62,753 nucleotides of DNA from Clostridiaceae bacterium (GTDB taxonomy: Bacteria; Bacillota; Clostridia; Saccharofermentanales; DTU023): the NCBI GenBank assembly GCA_012838355.1, contig DUPJ01000013.1, forward strand, positions 1-62,753, read 5' to 3'. The first letter of the stretch is position 1; each line of letters starts with the position of its first letter. Below are positions 32,655-59,507 of the stretch, piece after piece. The notes beneath the pieces were generated by a model that worked only from the letters and a program-made list of their open reading frames with translations, was not told the DNA's origin and made no database searches. A program made the translations under genes and the position numbers.

Positions 32655-33012
32655 GGCGCGTTTCCGGTTACCCTGTAAGCCGGGTTCTGTCTGGAATCGT
32701 CATCTATCTGGACCGCATCTCGCGACGCGGTTCGAGCCACCTCCATCGACATTCGGGTCAAATGCTTGTCGGCCGCGGTGTTGCTCCGGACGGGGTTTAC
32801 ACAGACGGGATCCGTCGCCGGATCCCCGGTGCGCTCTTGCCGCACCTTTTCATCCTTACCGTAAAACGGCGGTTATTTTCTGTTGCACTTTCCTTGAAGT
32901 TGCCTTCACCGGGTGTTACCCGGCGCCCTTACCCTGGGGAGCCCGGACTTTCCTCACCCGCATAGCGTTGGCACAACGGGCGCGACGATTCAGGTAGCCG
33001 GAAACGACTGCC
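32655..33012 (-). ncRNA. rnpB: RNase P RNA (bacterial)
   Basis: Reverse-complement reading shows GAGGAAAGTCCGGGCTCC (universal P4 region), ACAGAAAATAACCGCC, and a 3' CAGAACCCGGCTTACAGG. P1 pairs CGTTTCCGGCTACCTG with CAGGGTAACCGGAAACG. An extended -10 element TGCTATAAT lies just upstream (33027..33019). The ends are good to about 10 nt. Confidence 0.85.
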
Positions 33013-33807: not shown

Positions 33808-34481
33808 GCATCTATCCTCCCGATGTATTGTTCCAGCCGCGCCAGCGGCGATGCGGCCGTCGGATCATGCCTCACGACACGGCTGAGATGGCGTTTGAGC
33901 CGCCTCATATAAAGCAAAAAAGCGGCGTCCCCGAAATCGGCGTCCAACTGCGTCAGACAATGCGGGCCGATCCAGCGTTCGTCATCACTATACATTATTG
34001 ATTTGACTGAAGGTTTGACCGTCATCACCAGATATGTGCGCCCGCCTTCAGCCTTCACGGTCTCCGCCACGATCGCGAGGGACAGCTGAGAAAGCGTTTC
34101 ACGCAAAACTTCAGCGCGCGAATGCGGTGACAGCACATACATGGCGGCAGCCGATTCGATCTGAGTCAGTATCTGACCGATCTCCACACCGCCCAATCCG
34201 GCGATAACCACGCAGTCTCCAGCCTGAAGCAAACCGCTCGGGATGCCGTCGCCCCTGATTAGGGTCAGACGATCGTCCAGGCCCCAGCGCGAGACGTTTT
34301 TGGCGGCAACGCGCAGCGGTCCGTCTTTGTTGTCGATGGCCACCGCCTTCGCTTCGGGATCGCCGAGCAAATAATAAATCGGCAGCAGTGCGTGGTCACA
34401 CCCGACATCAATCAGGCGGGCACCGGGCAAAACAAGAGAGGCAATAAATCGGAGCCGGTCACTGACGCGGGGCGGTCTCAA
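33804..34481 (-). CDS. trmK: tRNA (adenine22-N1)-methyltransferase
   Basis: 225-aa ORF with [16 protein letters not shown] and IAGLGG motifs. Its ATG overlaps the rpoD stop. Confidence 0.8.
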
Positions 34482-36151
34482 TCGAGATACTCCCTCAATT
34501 TGCGGCTTCGGCTCGGGTGGCGCATTTTGCGCAGGGCCTTCGCCTCGATCTGACGAATGCGCTCGCGCGTGACATTGAATTCACGGCCGACTTCCTCCAG
34601 TGTGCGCGTACGTCCGTCGTCAAGACCGAAACGCAGTCGCAGCACCTTTTCCTCGCGCGGCGTGAGGCCTTTCAAAACCTCCATAATCTGTTCCTTCAGC
34701 AAGGTAAAGGCCGCCTGATCCGCCGGTGACGGGGCGTCATCGTCGGGTATGAAATCACCCAGATGGCTGTCTTCTTCTTCCCCGATCGGTTTTTCCAGCG
34801 AAACGGGTTCCTGCGATATTTTCATGATCTCCCGCACCTTGTCGGGGGTCAGGCCGATGGCCGCTGCGATCTCATCCACTTCAGGTTCCCGGCCCAGTTC
34901 CTGCAAAAGCTGACGCTGTATGCGAATCAGCTTGTTGATCGTTTCCACCATATGAACGGGGATGCGGATCGTTCTTGCCTGGTCGGCAATGGCGCGCGTA
35001 ATCGCCTGTCGAATCCACCAGGTCGCGTACGTCGAGAATTTGAATCCCTTCGTGTAGTCAAATTTGTCGACGGCTTTCATCAGGCCAAGATTGCCTTCCT
35101 GAATCAGGTCGAGGAACTGCATGCCGCGTCCCGTATAGCGTTTGGCAATACTGACGACCAGCCTTAGATTCGCTTCGGTCAGCTGCTGTTTCGCGTACTC
35201 GTCGCCTTCTTCCATGCGCTTGGCCAGATCCTTTTCCTGATCGGCCGTGAGCAGGTCTACCTTGCCGATTTCCTTGAGATACATGCGGACGGGATCGTCG
35301 ACCGTCATGGCATCATTGAATGCCTCCGCCTTCTTGCTGGTTTCACGCGTATCATCATCGCTGTCCACGATTTCGATGCCGGCACGCTCCAGTCCCTCGA
35401 TAATTTCATCCAGCTTATCTTCGTCATAATGAATCTTCTGCAGATAATCGAGGATTTCAGTCTGACTCAGCTGGCGATCCTTGCCGCGCGACTTCTGCAC
35501 GAGCGGGCGGAGAACGGCCAGGTCAAATGCCTGCAGCTCATGGTTATTTTCCACGTCCAGATCATCTTCGTCATCGTCTGTGTCGGCATCCTCCTCCTCT
35601 TCTTCCTCCACGTCGTCGACAAGGACATCACCCAGATCATCCTCATCCTCGACGTCACTGTCATCCAGACTGTCAAAATCCGGATCCTCATCTTCATCTG
35701 GCAGGTCGTCAGCATCAGCGTCCGCAAGAACGAGAACGTCCGTTTCAGGCGCTGACTTGGATTTACGCCTGGACGTTGACTTCTTCACCGTTTCCGGTGC
35801 AAGCGCTGCCTCATCTTGCGATGCCGATTCACCTGTCCCGGCAATTATTTTTTTCGCTGAGGAGCGTTTGCGCGCTGCTGCCGGCTTGACTTCAGGCGTC
35901 GCTTCTTCTTCTGCGGCAGCCTCGGGTTCGGCTTTCGCCTTTGTCTTCTTTGCCGGAGCGCGTTTTTGTTTTGCCGCCGGCTTGACTTCAGTCGCCGTCA
36001 CGTCTTCTGCGGCAGCCTCGGGTTCGGCTTTCGCCTTTGTCTTCTTTGCCGGAGCGCGTTTTTTCTGCGGCACCGCTTTTGTTTTAGCTCCGCTCTCGCT
36101 CGGCAGCGTCACTTCATTTTCCATTGTCTCGTTCGCATTATCCTTAGCCAC
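34478..36151 (-). CDS. rpoD: primary RNA polymerase sigma factor (SigA/RpoD) with a long repeat-containing N-terminal extension
   Basis: The C-terminal ~300 aa are canonical regions 1.2-4.2 ([52 protein letters not shown]). I chose the GTG start at 36151 because it has an AGAGGA RBS. ATG 36124 is an alternative. ATG 36253 from the track lacks an RBS and overlaps dnaG. Confidence 0.9.
35881..36072. repeat. 96-nt tandem duplication in the rpoD 5' region (32-aa Lys/Ala/Pro/Glu-rich repeat)
   Basis: CCGGCTTGACTTCAG occurs at 35881 and 35977. CTGCGGCAGCCTCGGGTTCGGCTTTCGCCTTTGTCTTCTTTGCCGGAGCGCGTTTTT occurs at 35911 and 36007. The protein repeat is [25 protein letters not shown], twice. Confidence 0.85.
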
Positions 36152-36231
36152 GTATCGTCCTCTTTCATGTCCTTCTCGCCATCGAGTTGTTTCGCAAAAG
36201 GCGTTCTTGCTGATTTGATTTTCGTATTCGT

Positions 36232-38010
36232 CTAAATGCGCTTCTGGCGCCATGTATTATACTGTTCAGATGCTTCTTTCAGCAGATTTTGGAGCGGTTT
36301 TCTCGCTTCTTCGTCCTGAGCCTGTTCAATGGCTTCAAGCAGAGCGTGCTTTTCTCGCTCAAAACGCCGTACTTTCAGTGCGGCAACGGCCCGGCGATAC
36401 ATGACAGTCCCGCCATCCGCCTGCTCCGACTTAATGGCGGCGGCCAGGAGCGCATCCGCCAGTTCAGGTGCGGCCTCTTCAACGAGACTCAGCAGGTACT
36501 GATAACTGTAACGTTTGGCGGCCATGGCTCCCTGCATGCTCTCAAAAAACGGGCGGAATCCCTCTTCCAGAAAGTCTTCCTCCTCAAGCGCAAACCCCTT
36601 CGTTTTCTGCAGGTCAGGATTATTTGAAAGCGCGAGCAAAACATACGTTTCGTCCGCCACCTGAGCCGCGGACGCGCGCGGTTTCGGCCTCGGTGTTTCC
36701 ACCGCAGTCTCTGCTTCATTCCGCCGCTTGCGAGCCACTTCCTCCTGAACCGCCGCCGGAGACGCGTGCAGCACTCTGGCAACCAGTTCAGCCTTCAGTT
36801 CACGCATGACTGCATTTTCCTCTGCCGCGAGCAAATCGGTTGCTTCGCGCTGATAGCGAAACACGTCGAGTTCACCGTCATCCTGTCTGGCCTGCTTTTC
36901 AATCAGGCGGAGCTTGAAATCGAGTTCATCCATTTTTGTTTCGAGCAGGGCTTTGAAACGGGACGCTCCATTTTTCCGTATGTACAGATCCGGATCCTTG
37001 AATTCAGGTACAGTCACAACCGATGCAAACACCTGCTTCTGCCGAAGCAGCTCAAGCGCCCGCAGCGATGCATTGATGCCCGCTTCGTCCGCATCGAGAC
37101 AAAGCGTTACCGGCCGGTCCATCTGAGCCAGAAGCTGCGCCTGGCGAGACGACATCGCAGTGCCGAGCAAAGCCACAGCCGTCGTCAATCCGGCCGCATG
37201 CAGAGAAATGGCATCGAAATAGCCCTCCGTCACGATCAGCGCTTCGTCTTTTTGCTTCTTGGCCAGATTCATGGCAAACAGATGCCGTCCCTTGGTGTAA
37301 AGCTCCGTCTCTTTCGAATTGATGTATTTCGCCTTCTCTTCACCCATCGCCCGTCCGCCGAAGGCCACAATCTGGCCTAGAAAATCAAAGATCGGGATCA
37401 TCAGGCGATTGCGAAAAACGTCGATAAGACGGCCATTCGATGCGCGCTGACAAACGCCTGCGGCAATGGCATCCGTCTCGGCAATGCCTTTTTCACGCAA
37501 ATGCAGCGTCAGCCGATCCCAGGCATCCGGGGCATACCCCAGTCCGAACGCGCGCTGTGTCGGCACGCTGATGCCGCGGCCCAGCAGATAGCGTTTCGCT
37601 TCATTGCCTTCCTGGACCGACAATGTGCGGTAAAAAAATCGTGCCGACTCGAGCAGAACCTGACGCAGACGCTGTTCCGCTTCCCGCCTCTGCCGATAAG
37701 ATTCATCTTCATCCAGCCTGATCTCAATGCCGGCCGCATCGGCCAGCGTCTGCACAGCCTCACGGAACGGCACGTGCTCTATTTCCGAGATGAATTTAAT
37801 GGCATTGCCGCCCTTGTGACAGCCGAAACAATAGAAGATGCGCTTGGCCGGCGACACAGAAAAAGACGGGGTCTTTTCACTGTGAAACGGACACAGGCCG
37901 AACAGACTGCCGCCTTTTTTTTCCAGACGCACATAGCGCGACACGACATCGACGATATCGGTCTCGTTCAAAATCTGATCAATGGTGTCCTGCGGGATTC
38001 TGCCTGCCAT
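36232..38010 (-). CDS. dnaG: DNA primase
   Basis: Trimmed to [27 protein letters not shown]. It has a zinc ribbon ([17 protein letters not shown]) and a Toprim domain (VTEGYFD..LDADEAG). Confidence 0.92.
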
Positions 38011-38133: not shown

Positions 38134-38898
38134 CTACATCATGGCAACGTCGTTCACGATCAGGTTGAAAGTCAGGCCGAGAAAGAGCGCGGCATGCCGG
38201 CACATCAGCATGCGGCTCAGGAATATTTCAAAGTAATCCGAGACGGTTGAAATCGCGGTATCGACTGTCAGTCTGAGGTGACACGTTTTCGCCTCTGTAT
38301 CAATCGTCAGCTCGGAATGTGTCACAGCATAATTGACACGGTCGTGAATATCGAAATTGTCCAATCCATCAAGATTGTTGACGCGTGATCGGTGAACATC
38401 CGATTTATCGGACAAAATCACGGCTGCGGCAATGGCATTGACGGGCTGGCCGACCCCTTCATCATGATTGGCTATGGCCGTGGCGACCAGAATCGCATCG
38501 GCATAATCGCAGCCGAGACGCACCAGCAGCTCGTAGGCGAGCTGGGCGCCGATCAGTTCGTGTCCCGGACGCGAAATGGCGTTGCCGATGTCATGCAGAT
38601 AGCCCGCGATTTTCGCGATTTCCACTTCACGCTTTGAAAAGGACAGCGCAGACAGCACATAGCCGGCCCGCTCAGCGATGAGCGAGGTATGGCGTTCCGA
38701 ATGATCCGTATAGCGCAATGCCTCCATCATATGTCTGGCGCCCGTGATCAGCGCTTTGACCTCAGCATCCTGTTTCACCGTTTCCAGTGTGACACTCGGT
38801 TCTTCGACGACTTCTGCAGGCGGTGCATAAGGCGATTCGGATTCTGCCGCGGTTCGCCTGGAAAAATAGAGTCGATCGTCACTCGTTTTGTCGTACAT
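38134..38898 (-). CDS. HD-domain metal-dependent phosphohydrolase
   Basis: Trimmed to MYDKTSDD with an AAGGAGA RBS. It has H..HD motifs (HSERH.., GYLHDIGN, ANHDEG). Confidence 0.7.
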   Translation of the reverse strand: MYDKTSDDRLYFSRRTAAESESPYAPPAEVVEEPSVTLETVKQDAEVKALITGARHMMEALRYTDHSERHTSLIAERAGYVLSALSFSKREVEIAKIAGYLHDIGNAISRPGHELIGAQLAYELLVRLGCDYADAILVATAIANHDEGVGQPVNAIAAAVILSDKSDVHRSRVNNLDGLDNFDIHDRVNYAVTHSELTIDTEAKTCHLRLTVDTAISTVSDYFEIFLSRMLMCRHAALFLGLTFNLIVNDVAMM

Positions 38899-38911: not shown

Positions 38912-40258
38912 TCAGATACGCACCGACTGCCCGCGATCAAGCCTGCGGGCAAAGAGCCACAAGGCCAGCTCAGCGCGCCGGCGAAGCAGGCGGCAGCCAC
39001 GTTCATCGTCCCCGGCAATGTCGCCGCTCCTGTGCAATCGGTTGGCGGCACAGCCGCCGCCGCAGATCGGGCGTGCAAAGCAGCTGTGACAGGCTTCAGG
39101 CGGATCGGTCAGGGCCGTGGCAAACAGATCCTGCACTTCAGCATTTCTGGCCGTCGGATCGAGCACGGAACCAAGACGAAATGATGTTTCGCCAACCAGC
39201 TGGTGGCAGGGATAAATGTCACCTTCCGGGGTAACGGCAATGTACTCGACGCCAACACCGCAGCCTTTGTGTCGCTTGAACGCACACGGGCCATCTTCCA
39301 GATCGAGGCGAAAATGAAAGAAGTCGACCGGCTCACCGGCTGCCTCCCTCGCATCCAGTTCAACTGCCAGCCGCTCGTACTCATCCATCACCTGATTCAT
39401 GTGCCATTCGCGAATGGCAAGCGGGTGCTCGTCAGGCAGTACGACAGGCTCGATCGAGACATGGCGCGATAACTCGGCCAGAGCAAAAACATCGGCAGCA
39501 AAATCGAGGTTTTCTGATGTAAAGGTTCCGCGCAGATGGTGTGCCTGATCGCCTCTGGATGAAAGAAGCGTGCGAATCCCGCGTGTCGTTGCCTCGTAGG
39601 AACCGCGGCGGCCGACAGCCGGCCGCACGGCATCGTGCACATGCTGCCTGCCGTCGATGGATAGGACGACATTGGAAAAATGCGCATTGATGAACGCCGC
39701 CTTTTCCTCATCCAGCAGGGTGGCATTCGTGGTCAGGGTCAGCCGGATATTTTTATTTTGCTTCCTGCCTTCGTCTTCACAATATGCCACGAGTGTTTTC
39801 ACTGTCTCCCAGTTGATCAGAGGCTCGCCGCCGAAAAAATCGATGTCAAGATTGCGCCTTGAACCGCTTTCGCGAATCAGGTAGTCAATGGCCTTTCTGC
39901 CGACATCACTGCTCATCAGCCCGCGCGGCCCGCCATAGTCACCTGTCCCGGCAAAGCAGTACGTGCAGCGCAGATTGCAGTCGTGGCAGAGATTGAGGCA
40001 CATCGCCTTGATGCGCGGCTCGTCAGGATACAGTTCTTCCGTTCTGAATGTCCGTTCGGGCGAGAAAAGCGCTCCGGCGCTGACGAGATCAAAGACGGCG
40101 CGGCCAACATCGGTCTTGAGATCGTCGTCCGTGACCTTCCCGTCATTGTTCACCGCACGCTCTACAACAAGAAGCGCTGCCTCGTCGAGCTGATGCAGCG
40201 CGCCTGATACGGAGTCGAAGGCAAAATGATCGCCCTGAACCGTAAATGTATGAACCAA
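38912..40258 (-). CDS. scfB: radical SAM/SPASM maturase for the SCIFF peptide
   Basis: 448-aa ORF with a TTG start 1 nt after the peptide stop. It has a CNLRCTYC radical SAM motif and a C-terminal SPASM Cys cluster (CGVG..YPCHQ..CHSCFARPICGGGCAANR). The N-terminus MVHTFTVQGDHFAFDSVSGALHQLDE matches the family. Confidence 0.88.
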   Translation of the reverse strand: MVHTFTVQGDHFAFDSVSGALHQLDEAALLVVERAVNNDGKVTDDDLKTDVGRAVFDLVSAGALFSPERTFRTEELYPDEPRIKAMCLNLCHDCNLRCTYCFAGTGDYGGPRGLMSSDVGRKAIDYLIRESGSRRNLDIDFFGGEPLINWETVKTLVAYCEDEGRKQNKNIRLTLTTNATLLDEEKAAFINAHFSNVVLSIDGRQHVHDAVRPAVGRRGSYEATTRGIRTLLSSRGDQAHHLRGTFTSENLDFAADVFALAELSRHVSIEPVVLPDEHPLAIREWHMNQVMDEYERLAVELDAREAAGEPVDFFHFRLDLEDGPCAFKRHKGCGVGVEYIAVTPEGDIYPCHQLVGETSFRLGSVLDPTARNAEVQDLFATALTDPPEACHSCFARPICGGGCAANRLHRSGDIAGDDERGCRLLRRRAELALWLFARRLDRGQSVRI

Positions 40259-40259
40259 A

Positions 40260-40406
40260 TTATCTCGCCTCGTTTTCGCAGGGCTGGTTTGCCACAGTAC
40301 AGCTGGTTTTGCAGGCCGACTGACATGATGTCTGGCATTCGCCGCAGGCGACCGTCACCTTTTCATTTGTCCATTTGCCTTTGGAAATCGTTTTGATAAA
40401 AGCCAT
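40260..40406 (-). CDS. scfA: SCIFF (six cysteines in forty-five residues) ribosomal peptide precursor
   Basis: Absent from the ORF track because it is under 60 aa. My reverse-complement translation gives MAFIKTISKGKWTNEKVTVACGECQTSCQSACKTSCTVANQPCENEAR*. The motif CGECQTSCQSACKTSCTVANQ-C is the SCIFF signature. An AGGAGA RBS lies upstream. Confidence 0.9.
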   Translation of the reverse strand: MAFIKTISKGKWTNEKVTVACGECQTSCQSACKTSCTVANQPCENEAR

Positions 40407-40425
40407 GGTTATCTCCTAAATAATG

Positions 40426-40764
40426 CTAATTGGACGATTCTTCGATCGACGGCGTAAAGATCTGGCTGACCGCACTCTTCTTAAACGTCATCATCGTATT
40501 TGCAACACTGGTGTAAATGGTGACTTCGTCGTCCGTCATACTGGCAATGCGGCCCACGATACCGCCGATTGTCATGACACTGTCACCGACCTTCATCTGG
40601 CTGATCTGTTCCTTCAGCTTCTTTTCCTTGTTTTTCTGAGGACGGATCATCAAAAAGTACATCACGACAAACATCAGAACGAGCGGCAGCAGCATGCCAA
40701 GCGAGCCGAACAGGCCTCCTGCTTCTGCCTGCTCCAATACAACTGGCAACCGATTAATCAACAT
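40426..40764 (-). CDS. yajC: preprotein translocase subunit YajC
   Basis: 112-aa ORF with one TM helix and the motif MIRPQKNKEKKLKEQISQMKVGDSVMTIGGIVG. Confidence 0.88.
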   Translation of the reverse strand: MLINRLPVVLEQAEAGGLFGSLGMLLPLVLMFVVMYFLMIRPQKNKEKKLKEQISQMKVGDSVMTIGGIVGRIASMTDDEVTIYTSVANTMMTFKKSAVSQIFTPSIEESSN

Positions 40765-40809: not shown

Positions 40810-40839
40810 ATCATAGCATTTTGACGTCTTTTGTGTAAA
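40810..40839 (-). promoter_or_regulatory. putative internal promoter for yajC-scfA-scfB
   Basis: On the minus strand: TTTACA (40839..40834), an 18-nt spacer, then TGCTATGAT (extended -10; hexamer 40815..40810). It lies between the tgt stop and the yajC start. Confidence 0.4.
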
Positions 40840-54873: not shown

Positions 54874-55281
54874 ATGAGAAAAAACACAAAAAAGAAAACC
54901 GGCAGCATCATCGTGATTGCCTCTTTTATCTTCATATTATCGGTTACCGGCCTTTTGAAGCTGGTCTGGCCGGAACAGCGCATCTCGGAAGCCGAAGCGC
55001 GCACACTCGCGACAATGCCGTCCATCTCCGGCGAATCGCTGCGAGACGGATCCTTCCCGCTGGCCGTCGAAGCGTATTTCACGGATCAGTTTCCGCTCCG
55101 CAATACACTGATCCGCTTCTCCGATTCGATGCGCAACATGCTGCGCATCACAATCGGCGATGATGTGCAGATCATTCAGGGCAATCAGGATATGGGACAA
55201 GGTGATTCCAACGTGATTCTGGACGAACTCCCCGGTGACGAGCCGATGGGTGTCGGTTACACGAGCCCTTACGTCAACTAG
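54874..55281 (+). CDS. DHHW/AlgJ-like protein, N-terminal fragment only (probably truncated)
   Basis: Start MRKNTKKK with an AAAGGAG RBS. It has a signal-anchor helix followed by E-x-R-x-L..P...G.F....E.Y..DQFP.R, the N-terminal signature of DHHW partners of MBOAT proteins. The ORF ends after about 135 aa, before any DHHW motif. Confidence 0.5.
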   Translation: MRKNTKKKTGSIIVIASFIFILSVTGLLKLVWPEQRISEAEARTLATMPSISGESLRDGSFPLAVEAYFTDQFPLRNTLIRFSDSMRNMLRITIGDDVQIIQGNQDMGQGDSNVILDELPGDEPMGVGYTSPYVN

Positions 55282-58200
55282 CCGGACAGATGGTCTTTCG
55301 CGCGTGACAGCATCAGCTTGATGCGATTTTGCTGATTGACCTCACTCGTGCCGGGATCATAGTCAACAGGTACGATATTGGCATCCGGATGCAGCTTCCG
55401 AATCGCGCGAATCATGCCTTTGCCCGTAACATGATTGGGCAGGCAGGCAAACGGCTGGGCGCAGATGATATTCGGCACACCGTCCGCAATCAGCTCGAGC
55501 ATCTCGCCTGTCAGAAACCATCCCTCACCGGCACAGTTGCCGAGCGAAAGCACCTGTTTTGCATGCTCTGCAACAGCCGCGATGGACTTACCCGGATGAA
55601 ACCTGCGGGAGGCGGCCAAGGCTCTGTTGGCCGCTTTGCGGTATCGCTCCATCAGATTCACAGCCAGCGTCGCCGCCCGCTCACTCAGGAATGAGGTATT
55701 CAGCGCCTGGCGCGACCACTTCTGATTGTAAAAGCAGTAGAGGAAGAAATCGAGGAGATTCGGCATGGCCGCCTCAAACCCTTCGGCCTCAATAAAGTCA
55801 ATGGCATGGTTGTTGGCATCCGGCTGAAACTTGACCAGAATCTCACCGACCAGACCGACACGCTGCCGGTTCGGCTCCGTGACAAGTTCCATCGTATCGA
55901 ACGCCCGCACACATTCGCGGATCAGACCTGCGAGCGGGCGTGCCGGCCGGGACGAGCCGAAATAACGGGAAAACCGTGAGCTCCACTCTTCATACAGCTG
56001 ATTTGCCTGACCGGGGAATGCTTCGTACGGCCGCACTCTGAGCAGCACATTCTGCAGTACGTCACCTGCAATGATGGCCTGTATGCCGCGATGCAGCATG
56101 AACGGCGCATAATGAAAACCGCTGTTGCTTTCGATCCCGCTGGCCGACAGCGCAATCACCGGAATCTCTTCCAACCCGGCATCTTTCAGGGCTTTCCGCA
56201 GCAGCGCCACATAATTGGTCGCGCGGCAGCCGCCGCCCGTTTGGGTAATCATGACCGATGTGTTCTGCCGGTCATAATCGCCCGACAAAAGCGCACGCAT
56301 AAGCTGGCCGACAACCATGACGGTCGGATAGCAGGCGTCGTTGTTGACAAAGCGCAGTCCCGTTTCAACGTCGGCAGGCAGAGCCTTTTCCAGTATCTTC
56401 AGCCGGTATCCGGCCTGCCGGAATACCTGCTCGACGAGACGGAAATGGATCGGTGACATCTGCGGCGCCAGAATCGTGTGATTCGCTCTCATTTCTCCTG
56501 TGAATTCAACGCGTCTGGCAGCATATCTGGCGCCTGATGCCGGCCGCTGCTGCCGCCGGCGTTCCTCCATCGCAACCAGCAGTGAACGAAGCCGGATACG
56601 TGCCGCGCCCAGATTTGATACTTCATCGATCTTCAGGCAGGTGTAGATTTTGCCGTGAGCCCGCAGGATTTCTTCAACCTGATCCGTCGTAATCGCGTCC
56701 AGGCCGCAGCCGAATGAATTCAGCTGGACCAGTTCCAGATCGTCTCGCTCGGCGACACGGGAGGCAGCGGCGTACAGCCTGGAATGGTATGCCCACTGGT
56801 CGACCACGCGGAGCGGCCGCTCGCTCAGACGCCCGCGCAGAATGCTCTCTTCCGTGAAAACGGTCAGTCCCAGCTGATTGATCAGTTCCGGAATGCCGTG
56901 ATGAATCCCGGGATCGGCATGGTACGGCCGTCCGGCCAGAACGATGCCGAAACCGCCGTCTTTTTCCATCCTGTCGAGCGCATCTTCCCCTTTCGCAAAG
57001 AGATCCTCGTGATAGCGCTTGTCTTCTTCACAGGCAGCTCGCACGGCCCGCCGAACTTGTTCCCGACTGACGCCGAAGTCAGCAAAATACGGAAAAAGTC
57101 GCCTGGCCAGATGCTTGTGGTCATGCAGACCGACAAATGGATTGATGAAGCGGATGCCCTCCCCCTTAAGCCGTTCAAGATTGGTCCGGATCACCTCGGG
57201 GTATGACGCGACGATGGGACAATTGTACGTTTTGTCTGCGCCGGGCACCAGTTCATCTTCGAGCACGACATCAGGATAAAAAATCGTCTTCACACCGCGC
57301 GAAATGAGATCCTCAATATGTCCGTGTGCCAGTTTCGCCGGATAGCAGATGCTCTCAGAGGGGATTGAATCCATGCCGCTTTCGAACAGTGCCGCCGATG
57401 TGCTGCCGGACAACACAACGCGAAAGCCCAGCTGATCCAGAAACGTAAACCAGAACGGATAGTTTTCAAACATGTTGAGTGCCCGCGGAATACCGATTTC
57501 ACCGCATGGTGCCGCGTCCATGCTGCGCGGCTCGTAACCGAATGTGCGTTCGTATTTATGCCGGACCAGATTGGGCAGTTCCGATATCTTCTTTTCGGCA
57601 CCGGCACCGCGTTCACATCGGTTCCCCGACACATTGATGCGGTCACCGAAGCGCGATATCGTCAGCTTGCAGCGGTTTTCACACCGTCTGCACATCGTCA
57701 GCGTCGTCTTCTGCCTCAGTGCTGTGAGCGCTTCGCGCCTCAGCACGGTCTGCCGGGAACCGGCCGGTGCAGCTTCTTTCGCCATCAGCGCAGCTCCGTA
57801 GGCACCCATCAGACCGGCCAGGGACGGTCGCACAACCGGCCGGCCGAGCACCTTTTCAAATGCGCGCAGAATGGCATCATTCAAAAATGTGCCGCCCTGA
57901 CAGACAATGTGCCGGCCAAGCTGTTCCGGGTCCTTGATCTTGATCACTTTGTACAAGGCATTGCGGACCACCGAATAGGCAAGTCCCGCTGAAATATCGG
58001 CGACTTTGCTGCCCTGCTTCTGGGCCTGTTTGACGCGCGAATTCATGAATACCGTGCAGCGCGTGCCGAGATCGACCGGCATCTTTGCCTGCACGGCCAG
58101 ATCGGCGAATGCTTCAACTGAAACGTTCAGCGCAGCGGCAAAGGTCTGAATAAACGAGCCGCAGCCGGACGAACACGCCTCATTTACGGCGATGCTGTCA

Positions 58201-59507
58201 ATGATGCCGTCACTGATGTGCACGCACTTCATGTCCTGACCGCCAATGTCGAGAATAAAGTCGACATCCGGCTGAAACTCACGGGCACCGCGATAATGGG
58301 CCATTGTTTCGACCGTTCCGTCGTTGACGCAAAATGCGGCCCTGACAAGCTGTTCGCCATAGCCTGTCGCCATGGCGTAGGGAATCTCAATATCGTCGCC
58401 GAGCGTGTCATACATGCCGGACAGCATCGCTTTCGCTGTTTCGACCGGCTGGCCGTCATTGGCACGATAATCGGTATGCACAATCTTCCCGCCTTGATCG
58501 ACGAGGACGATTTTCGTCGTCGTACTCCCCGCATCGATGCCAAGGAAATAAGGCGGTGTACCGCCTTCTTCGGCAAACAGGGCGCTTTTTGCCGAATGAT
58601 GACGGGTGTGAAACTGTACCCGCTCTTCCTCAGTCTCAAACAGCGGGGCCAGCGTTTTTATCGGATCGCCATCCGCACGTCGCCGCCGCCAGCGCGCCAG
58701 ATATGCCGCGGCCGTAAAATGGGGCTCCTTTGCAAGCATGGCAGCGCCCATCGCAACAAAATACTGCGCGTTCTGCGGGCGGATGAACGAATGCACCTGC
58801 CGATCGAGCGTCCGCTCGAAGGCATAGGCCAGCTGATCCAGAAAGTGGAGCGGACCGCCCAGCAAAACGACGTGACCGCGAATCGGCCGTCCGCACGCCA
58901 GTCCGGCAATCGTCTGGTTGACGATCGCCTGAAAAACAGACGCTGCCAGATCGGCTCGTGATGCCCCGTCGTTGATCAGGGGCTGCAGATCGGATTTGGC
59001 AAAAACCCCGCAGCGAGACGCGATCGGGTACAGCGTTCGATGATCACCAGCCAGCTCATTCAGTCCCGCTGCATCCGTTTGCATCAGACTGGCCATCTGG
59101 TCAATGAATGAACCGGTTCCGCCTGCACAGACGCCGTTCATGCGCTGTTCCGGCGACGGTTTGAGGTACGTGATTTTGGCATCTTCTCCGCCCAGCTCGA
59201 TGATGACATCGGCCTCCGGGTAAAAGGTCATAACGGGCTTCGTTCCGGCTACCACCTCCTGCACAAACGGCAATCCAAGAGTCTTTGCCACATTCATGCC
59301 GCCCGAGCCGGTCACAGCTAGTGCCAGCGGCTCCTCCCCGCATCGGTTATCCAGGGCGACGAGCAAACGCTCGAGCTCCTTTCCAATATCCGCATGATGA
59401 CGCACATATTCGGATAATACCGGCTGACCCTTCTTTTCCAGCCACAATTTAATTGTCGTCGAGCCGATATCGATGCCGGCTCTATAGCTGCCGTTTGATT
59501 TTGTCAT
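55278..59507 (-). CDS. 1409-aa fusion: two BcrAD/BadFG-type ATPase (activase) modules + DUF2229-like region + 2-hydroxyacyl-CoA dehydratase-like domain
   Basis: Two actin-fold starts (GIDIGSTTIKLWL and GIDAGSTTTKIVLVD) are each followed by a cluster-Cys motif (CAGGTGSF and CSSGCGSF). Next comes a Cys-rich linker (CRRCENRCKLT..GNRCERG), then a long C-terminal dehydratase-like region. Its ATG overlaps the PBP stop (ATGA). Confidence 0.8.
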   Translation of the reverse strand: MTKSNGSYRAGIDIGSTTIKLWLEKKGQPVLSEYVRHHADIGKELERLLVALDNRCGEEPLALAVTGSGGMNVAKTLGLPFVQEVVAGTKPVMTFYPEADVIIELGGEDAKITYLKPSPEQRMNGVCAGGTGSFIDQMASLMQTDAAGLNELAGDHRTLYPIASRCGVFAKSDLQPLINDGASRADLAASVFQAIVNQTIAGLACGRPIRGHVVLLGGPLHFLDQLAYAFERTLDRQVHSFIRPQNAQYFVAMGAAMLAKEPHFTAAAYLARWRRRRADGDPIKTLAPLFETEEERVQFHTRHHSAKSALFAEEGGTPPYFLGIDAGSTTTKIVLVDQGGKIVHTDYRANDGQPVETAKAMLSGMYDTLGDDIEIPYAMATGYGEQLVRAAFCVNDGTVETMAHYRGAREFQPDVDFILDIGGQDMKCVHISDGIIDSIAVNEACSSGCGSFIQTFAAALNVSVEAFADLAVQAKMPVDLGTRCTVFMNSRVKQAQKQGSKVADISAGLAYSVVRNALYKVIKIKDPEQLGRHIVCQGGTFLNDAILRAFEKVLGRPVVRPSLAGLMGAYGAALMAKEAAPAGSRQTVLRREALTALRQKTTLTMCRRCENRCKLTISRFGDRINVSGNRCERGAGAEKKISELPNLVRHKYERTFGYEPRSMDAAPCGEIGIPRALNMFENYPFWFTFLDQLGFRVVLSGSTSAALFESGMDSIPSESICYPAKLAHGHIEDLISRGVKTIFYPDVVLEDELVPGADKTYNCPIVASYPEVIRTNLERLKGEGIRFINPFVGLHDHKHLARRLFPYFADFGVSREQVRRAVRAACEEDKRYHEDLFAKGEDALDRMEKDGGFGIVLAGRPYHADPGIHHGIPELINQLGLTVFTEESILRGRLSERPLRVVDQWAYHSRLYAAASRVAERDDLELVQLNSFGCGLDAITTDQVEEILRAHGKIYTCLKIDEVSNLGAARIRLRSLLVAMEERRRQQRPASGARYAARRVEFTGEMRANHTILAPQMSPIHFRLVEQVFRQAGYRLKILEKALPADVETGLRFVNNDACYPTVMVVGQLMRALLSGDYDRQNTSVMITQTGGGCRATNYVALLRKALKDAGLEEIPVIALSASGIESNSGFHYAPFMLHRGIQAIIAGDVLQNVLLRVRPYEAFPGQANQLYEEWSSRFSRYFGSSRPARPLAGLIRECVRAFDTMELVTEPNRQRVGLVGEILVKFQPDANNHAIDFIEAEGFEAAMPNLLDFFLYCFYNQKWSRQALNTSFLSERAATLAVNLMERYRKAANRALAASRRFHPGKSIAAVAEHAKQVLSLGNCAGEGWFLTGEMLELIADGVPNIICAQPFACLPNHVTGKGMIRAIRKLHPDANIVPVDYDPGTSEVNQQNRIKLMLSRAKDHLSG

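Follow-up and report, generated by a model that had tools for sequence, protein, structure and literature searches.

What is encoded in the short spacer between yajC and a radical SAM gene that an ORF track leaves blank, and what would the product of such a locus do? For the window, i.e. the whole analysed stretch of 62,753 nucleotides, an earlier note had claimed that this spacer hides the gene of a six-cysteine SCIFF peptide and that the adjoining gene encodes its radical SAM/SPASM maturase. Based on family models, the alignment to CteB, the catalytic motifs, the conservation of the peptide core, the position of scfB directly after scfA in 70/73 loci and the recurrence of the pair on independent contigs, we consider it very probable that the pair constitutes a canonical SCIFF ranthipeptide system. 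What could be observed directly, at this locus and in its relatives, is to which families both genes belong, their catalytic motifs, their arrangement and their conservation.

The SCIFF/ScfB pair is an already known system which is found in nearly all Clostridia; it was reportedly described in 2011, and a crystal structure, in vitro chemistry and automatic naming by NCBIfam and Pfam models are already at hand. That the pair is known and widely conserved in Clostridia had been stated in the earlier note and agrees with a scan of one genome per species, in which at least 589 SCIFF genes were found. Features specific to the copy in the window, namely an atypical leader, a gene gap of a single nucleotide and the missing secDF, are minor.

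The precursor peptide gene scfA

The stop codon of yajC at position 40426 and the radical SAM start at 40258 leave a gap of 167 nt (40259..40425). It contains a minus-strand ORF of 48 codons at 40260..40406 with the translation MAFIKTISKGKWTNEKVTVACGECQTSCQSACKTSCTVANQPCENEAR, in exact agreement in coordinates and sequence with the untracked ORF proposed before. The predicted ribosome binding site could likewise be read directly from the sequence, with the Shine-Dalgarno motif AGGAGA at 40412..40417 on the minus strand, five bases from the ATG. The 48-aa peptide belongs to the SCIFF family, as had been claimed, and was recognized by both family models searched, with 69.5 bits against a cut-off of 50 (E 1.6e-19) for NCBIfam TIGR03973 "six-cysteine ranthipeptide SCIFF" and 70.4 bits against a cut-off of 27 (E 1.2e-19) for Pfam PF13165. 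In principle, an ORF below the usual length thresholds of ORF calling could stay open by chance in a spacer that does not code, but E values of this size on two curated models, the at least 589 homologous peptide genes in other genomes and the strong Shine-Dalgarno motif with an ATG start leave this with a vanishingly small probability, and the HMM results already refute it. Absence of scfA from the ORF track is explained by 48-codon genes falling under ORF-length thresholds, the annotation lesson of this locus, and a curator of the family has likewise remarked that gene callers easily overlook SCIFF (PMC5300114).

ScfA contains exactly six cysteines, at positions 21, 24, 28, 32, 36 and 43, and can be divided into a leader of approximately residues 1–20 and the cysteine-rich core of residues 21–48. 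The codons of Cys32, Thr34 and Thr37 lie at 40313..40311, 40307..40305 and 40298..40296 of the minus strand, respectively. The leader is atypical and begins with MAFIKTISKGKW; neither a Sec signal nor a double-glycine cleavage motif is present in it, with VA at the position of the common GG preceding the core. Cys-X3-Asp repeats of the PapA type do not occur in ScfA. One T separates the stop codon TAA at 40262..40260 from the TTG start of scfB, so that the radical SAM gene indeed starts 1 nt past the peptide stop, as noted earlier.

The radical SAM/SPASM maturase ScfB

The gene scfB (38912..40258, minus strand) starts with TTG and encodes a radical SAM/SPASM thioether-forming SCIFF maturase of 448 residues. 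On TIGR03974 "thioether cross-link-forming SCIFF peptide maturase" ScfB scored 477.3 bits against a cut-off of 425, a margin of only 52 bits, which nevertheless places it in the family to which it had been assigned before. The scores on sister radical SAM models all stayed under their cut-offs (not_ScfB 410/855, nif11 261/519, PapB 241/340, QhpD 223/453), PF04055 gave 60.4 bits, and the full-length alignment to CteB (5WGG) reached an E value of 1.7e-114.

The radical SAM motif C94-X3-C98-X2-C101 is located at 39956..39979 of the minus strand and aligns with the CteB motif. Residues 87–101 (39956..40000, minus strand) in fact contain two overlapping CX3CX2C patterns, C87/C91/C94 and C94/C98/C101, of which the second alone aligns with CteB, where the counterpart of C91 is a serine. 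Further downstream, the SPASM domain (38993..39286, minus strand) was detected by TIGR04085 with 64.1 bits against a cut-off of 27, while the Pfam SPASM model fell just short with 19.3 against 21.5. Its eight cysteines (325, 333, 351, 390, 393, 399, 403, 422) are arranged as C333-X12-G-X4-C351 and C390-X2-C393-X5-C399-X3-C403 plus C325 and C422, would hold two auxiliary [4Fe-4S] clusters and all line up with cysteines of CteB. The CxxxCxxC motif and the SPASM cysteine cluster described earlier are hence both found again, and the predicted iron-sulfur ligand cysteines of ScfB are all conserved. Residues 1–85 (40004..40258, minus strand) are the putative counterpart of the RRE domain with which CteB binds leaders, as judged solely by the alignment, which starts from residue 1 and proceeds with low identity and one gap; the RRE domain of CteB itself has been described (PMC8172795). 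For translation of scfB, a GAGG at 40268..40271 of the minus strand, located inside the 3' end of scfA and nine bases from the TTG (junction AACGAGGCGAGATAATTTG), is probably a weak Shine-Dalgarno motif. A second SCIFF or ScfB copy was not found in the whole window.

The small margin on TIGR03974, taken together with 410 bits on NF040492, could suggest a maturase of the ScfB-related orphan class (not_ScfB) or of a PapB/QhpD-like ranthipeptide subclass with another substrate, with scfA as a decaying or coincidental remnant. We consider this exceedingly improbable, since 410 bits are far below the NF040492 cut-off of 855 while that of TIGR03974 is exceeded, an intact scfA with a strong Shine-Dalgarno motif and a fully canonical core lies 1 nt upstream, the peptide is devoid of the PapA-type repeats and the same peptide gene is found again, unchanged, on independent contigs.

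Comparison with related SCIFF loci

All comparisons between loci use the 80 most similar (L001–L080) of the at least 589 loci obtained from the scan. The core of the window peptide, C-G-E-C-Q-T-S-C-Q-S-A-C-K-T-S-C-T-V-A-N-Q-x-C-E-N, equals the consensus of these best 80 loci, in all of which Cys32 and Thr34 are invariant. Thr37 is replaced by glycine in 11/80 of them, e.g. in the Faecalibacterium-type loci L045, L056, L071 and L080. Because Thr34 is invariant while Thr37 is sometimes glycine, the alignment favours Thr34 over Thr37 as the conserved acceptor for Cys32. The leader of ScfA keeps I4-K5-T6 and departs from the consensus of the best 80 loci at five strongly conserved positions (K2A, H3F, L12W, G19V and G20A), so that details of leader recognition could differ.

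ScfB shares at most 49% identity with homologues from these 80 loci. Within the best 80 of the at least 589 loci, scfB directly follows scfA in 70/73, and the gap between both genes, 1 nt here, has a median of 86 nt, which puts the window copy at the tight extreme, together with its closest relative L001. Three loci, L015, L073 and L074, carry an intact scfA but nothing resembling ScfB within 6 kb, at a threshold as permissive as E=10, contradicting the expectation of an adjacent ScfB for every ScfA; in L073 the gene order is queA-tgt-yajC-scfA-gamma carbonic anhydrase-like-HD protein, and the peptide of L015 is extended at its C-terminus (60 aa).

The closest loci among the matches listed belong to Bacillota, Oscillospiraceae and Christensenellaceae MAGs, and among the best 80 the order scfB-dnaG-rpoD-trmK-nif3 is shared only with the Oscillospiraceae loci L009 and L018. 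The exact ScfB protein of this uncultured source organism was found on 12 contigs of public metagenome assemblies, and the four public contigs which were inspected show the same order queA-tgt-yajC-scfA-scfB-HD-dnaG as the window. On independent metagenome contigs, public gene callers predict the same 48-aa and 448-aa genes, with the 48-aa gene already tagged as PF13165. An rRNA gene was not found in the window.

Proposed mechanism and closest known systems

We infer the chemistry of the window pair from homology with Tte1186 and CteB. In the proposed mechanism, the ScfA leader with its conserved I-K-T motif would be bound by the N-terminal RRE-like domain of ScfB, whereupon the [4Fe-4S] cluster on C94/C98/C101 would cleave S-adenosylmethionine to yield a 5'-deoxyadenosyl radical, which in turn would take a hydrogen from the side chain of a core threonine. 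A cysteine thiolate at the open site of an auxiliary SPASM cluster would then close a sulfur-to-gamma-carbon thioether, in ScfA most likely linking Cys32 to Thr34 or Thr37. According to PMC8326336 and PMC8172795, a Cys32–Thr37 thioether was obtained in vitro for Tte1186a and CteA, which bears out the earlier statement on in vitro thioether chemistry of homologous maturases, and a Cys32–Thr34 S–Cgamma link was obtained on co-expression. PMC8326336 describes both the acceptor residue (Thr34 or Thr37) and the crosslinking of other cysteines as disputed in the literature. Considering the strong Shine-Dalgarno motif and ATG of scfA versus the weak motif and TTG of the abutting scfB, the sequence suggests that much more ScfA substrate than ScfB enzyme would be made. 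The mature peptide would act as a conserved, single-copy physiological factor of Clostridia, with a presumed role discussed below.

Among known systems, CteA/CteB (thermocellin) from Clostridium thermocellum (CteB PDB 5WGG/5WHY) shares with the window pair the full-length maturase with its radical SAM motif and eight SPASM cysteines, as well as the peptide core with identical numbering of Cys32, Thr34 and Thr37. It differs in the leader, which is divergent in the window (AF for KH at positions 2–3, W12 and VA for GG before the core), and in gene spacing, the window genes being 1 nt apart instead of spacer-separated, in a genome of high G+C content (56%). Tte1186a/Tte1186 from Caldanaerobacter subterraneus, which is said to be the first SCIFF pair characterised in vitro, falls under the same family models. 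The residues of its reported Cys32–Thr37 link (PMC8326336, PMC8172795) are present in ScfA, too. The Clostridium pairs studied by knockout belong to the same precursor and maturase family and are the sole members with reported knockout phenotypes (PMC8102284), in a different order of Clostridia. PapA/PapB (freyrasin) and QhpD represent related radical SAM/SPASM enzymes, with thioethers at non-alpha carbons (PMC8172795), from which the window pair is set apart by the sub-threshold scores of ScfB on their models and by the lack of Cys-X3-Asp repeats in ScfA.

Physiological role and genomic context

The earlier note had called the physiological role of the peptide unknown. This is too strong, since knockouts of both the precursor and the maturase exist: in C. 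beijerinckii they led to lower expression of sporulation genes and to higher agr expression (Chen et al. 2020, relayed by PMC8102284, PMC8326336 and PMC7778980); it holds insofar as the function is only partly explored. From these knockouts a quorum-sensing role was proposed (PMC8102284 and PMC7778980), a proposal which, in these accounts, stems from one study on two Clostridium species. The published knockouts suggest that the role of the SCIFF peptide is regulatory or quorum-sensing-like. SCIFF function being only partly understood, the yajC-secDF embedding described below and the invariance of Thr34 could, as family-wide facts, feed this question.

In the window, scfA and scfB are part of a tightly packed, co-directional minus-strand array consisting of trmFO, queA, tgt, yajC, scfA, scfB, an HD-domain gene, dnaG, rpoD, trmK, a NIF3-family gene and the RNase P RNA. 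The order queA-tgt-yajC-scfA-scfB-HD-dnaG-rpoD, which had been proposed before, is backed by curated models. The outer flanks are of housekeeping character, too (topA, dprA, coaE, polA, an ECF sigma factor, PBP/FtsW, a YfhO-family protein and a two-component system). Family models revealed neither an ABC transporter nor a leader peptidase nor an immunity gene in the array from trmFO to rnpB or in its flanks, as the earlier note had stated for transporter, protease and immunity genes, and the pair is not a bacteriocin system with dedicated export and immunity genes. A secreted sactipeptide-like bacteriocin exported by general machinery, for which export genes would be missing only apparently, could nevertheless be imagined, as ScfB shares homology with the maturases of sactipeptides and ranthipeptides, genome-mining tools class SCIFF clusters as RiPP biosynthetic clusters (PMC7778980) and the gene directly upstream is yajC, a Sec accessory gene. 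However, besides the missing genes, the leader contains neither a Sec signal nor a double-glycine motif, with VA in place of GG. Bacteriocins usually diversify rapidly, and the near-invariance of the SCIFF core across orders is the opposite of this behaviour. SCIFF is in addition widespread and never exceeds one copy per species (bioRxiv 10.1101/2025.02.12.637840), a wide single-copy distribution from which reviewers likewise argue against an antimicrobial (PMC8326336; bioRxiv 10.1101/2025.02.12.637840). We therefore regard a bacteriocin as very unlikely and retain a non-antimicrobial SCIFF peptide as the preferred reading.

The earlier note had reached the same conclusion by a different route, arguing that insertion into a translation/replication array suggests a housekeeping rather than a bacteriocin role. 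While its conclusion agrees with PMC8326336, the array argument is weakened by comparison among the best 80 loci, where dnaG follows scfB in only 2/66, both Oscillospiraceae. In contrast, 30/69 of these loci have yajC within 1.5 kb of scfA on its upstream side and 16/61 have tgt on that side, a TIGR04086/DUF3792 membrane protein immediately precedes scfA in 23/76, and in 25/70 secDF is one of the next three genes downstream, in many cases with recJ after it. The recurrent arrangement, observed in several orders (L002–L079), is queA-tgt-yajC-(TIGR04086/DUF3792)-scfA-scfB-(hexapeptide or gamma-CA-like protein)-secDF-recJ, and in the Lachnospiraceae loci L020, L053 and L058 it is permuted to scfAB-secDF-tgt-yajC with the same genes still together. 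Given this recurrence of yajC, TIGR04086 and secDF, the conserved context of SCIFF is an ancient tgt-yajC-secDF (Sec-accessory) operon and not dnaG/rpoD, whose proximity to scfAB is a lineage-specific rearrangement and thus renders the translation/replication argument weaker.

The window contains no homologue of secDF, of the TIGR04086 membrane protein or of recJ. The yajC-secDF synteny across several orders, together with scfA still lying 19 nt from yajC here where secDF is gone, allows for the tentative idea that the SCIFF peptide has a functional link to the Sec-accessory machinery (YajC/SecDF) instead of acting as an independent signal. We regard this as unlikely, with inherited synteny lacking functional meaning as an equally simple alternative. 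A literature search for SCIFF together with yajC or SecD, with the founding 2011 paper outside its coverage, returned no paper.

Transcript and further genes of the array

The gene yajC (40426..40764, minus strand; TIGR00739, 80.7 bits) ends 19 nt before scfA, which is separated from scfB by 1 nt and scfB from the HD-domain gene by 13 nt, and no credible terminator was found between these four genes. In the tgt-yajC gap, a candidate sigma-70-like promoter, TTTACA-18-TATGAT with an extended -10 TG, is located at 40810..40839 of the minus strand; with 10/12 matches it is the best such site in the 17 kb scanned. From the sequence we thus expect yajC, scfA and scfB to be probably cotranscribed from this site. 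An internal scfA promoter inside yajC was rejected as too weak, its candidate at 40517..40490 having only 9/12 matches, and so was an attenuator at the scfA/scfB junction, where the predicted RNA fold was no better than that of shuffled sequence (z -0.30).

The HD-domain protein encoded 13 nt past scfB (254 aa, 38134..38898, minus strand, Shine-Dalgarno GAAGGAGA) showed weak family matches, with 27 bits for HD, HDIG under its cut-off and approximately 60 N-terminal residues unmatched. Its gene was considered as a part of the system and discarded, since it is present on the four inspected same-lineage contigs but has a homologue in only 1/80 of the best loci (L073). The array ends with a bacterial class A RNase P RNA (268 bits, 32660..33001, minus strand), 32 nt past the NIF3-family gene. 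The rpoD ORF (34478..36253, minus strand, 591 aa) aligns with RpoD models only from approximately residue 249, and its N-terminal 215–248 residues or so form a low-complexity extension in which a basic segment ending in EVKPAA occurs twice, with a long acidic tract rich in Asp and Glu after it. Taken at its longest, the rpoD ORF has an overlap of 22 nt with the dnaG stop; in public gene calls it starts near 36150. Outside the array, a gene at 55278..59507 of the minus strand, located beside the PBP and FtsW/RodA (FHA domain) genes, encodes a 1409-aa fusion of a BadF/BcrAD-type ATPase with a DUF2229 protein, a CoA-enzyme activase architecture of the kind usual in anaerobes.
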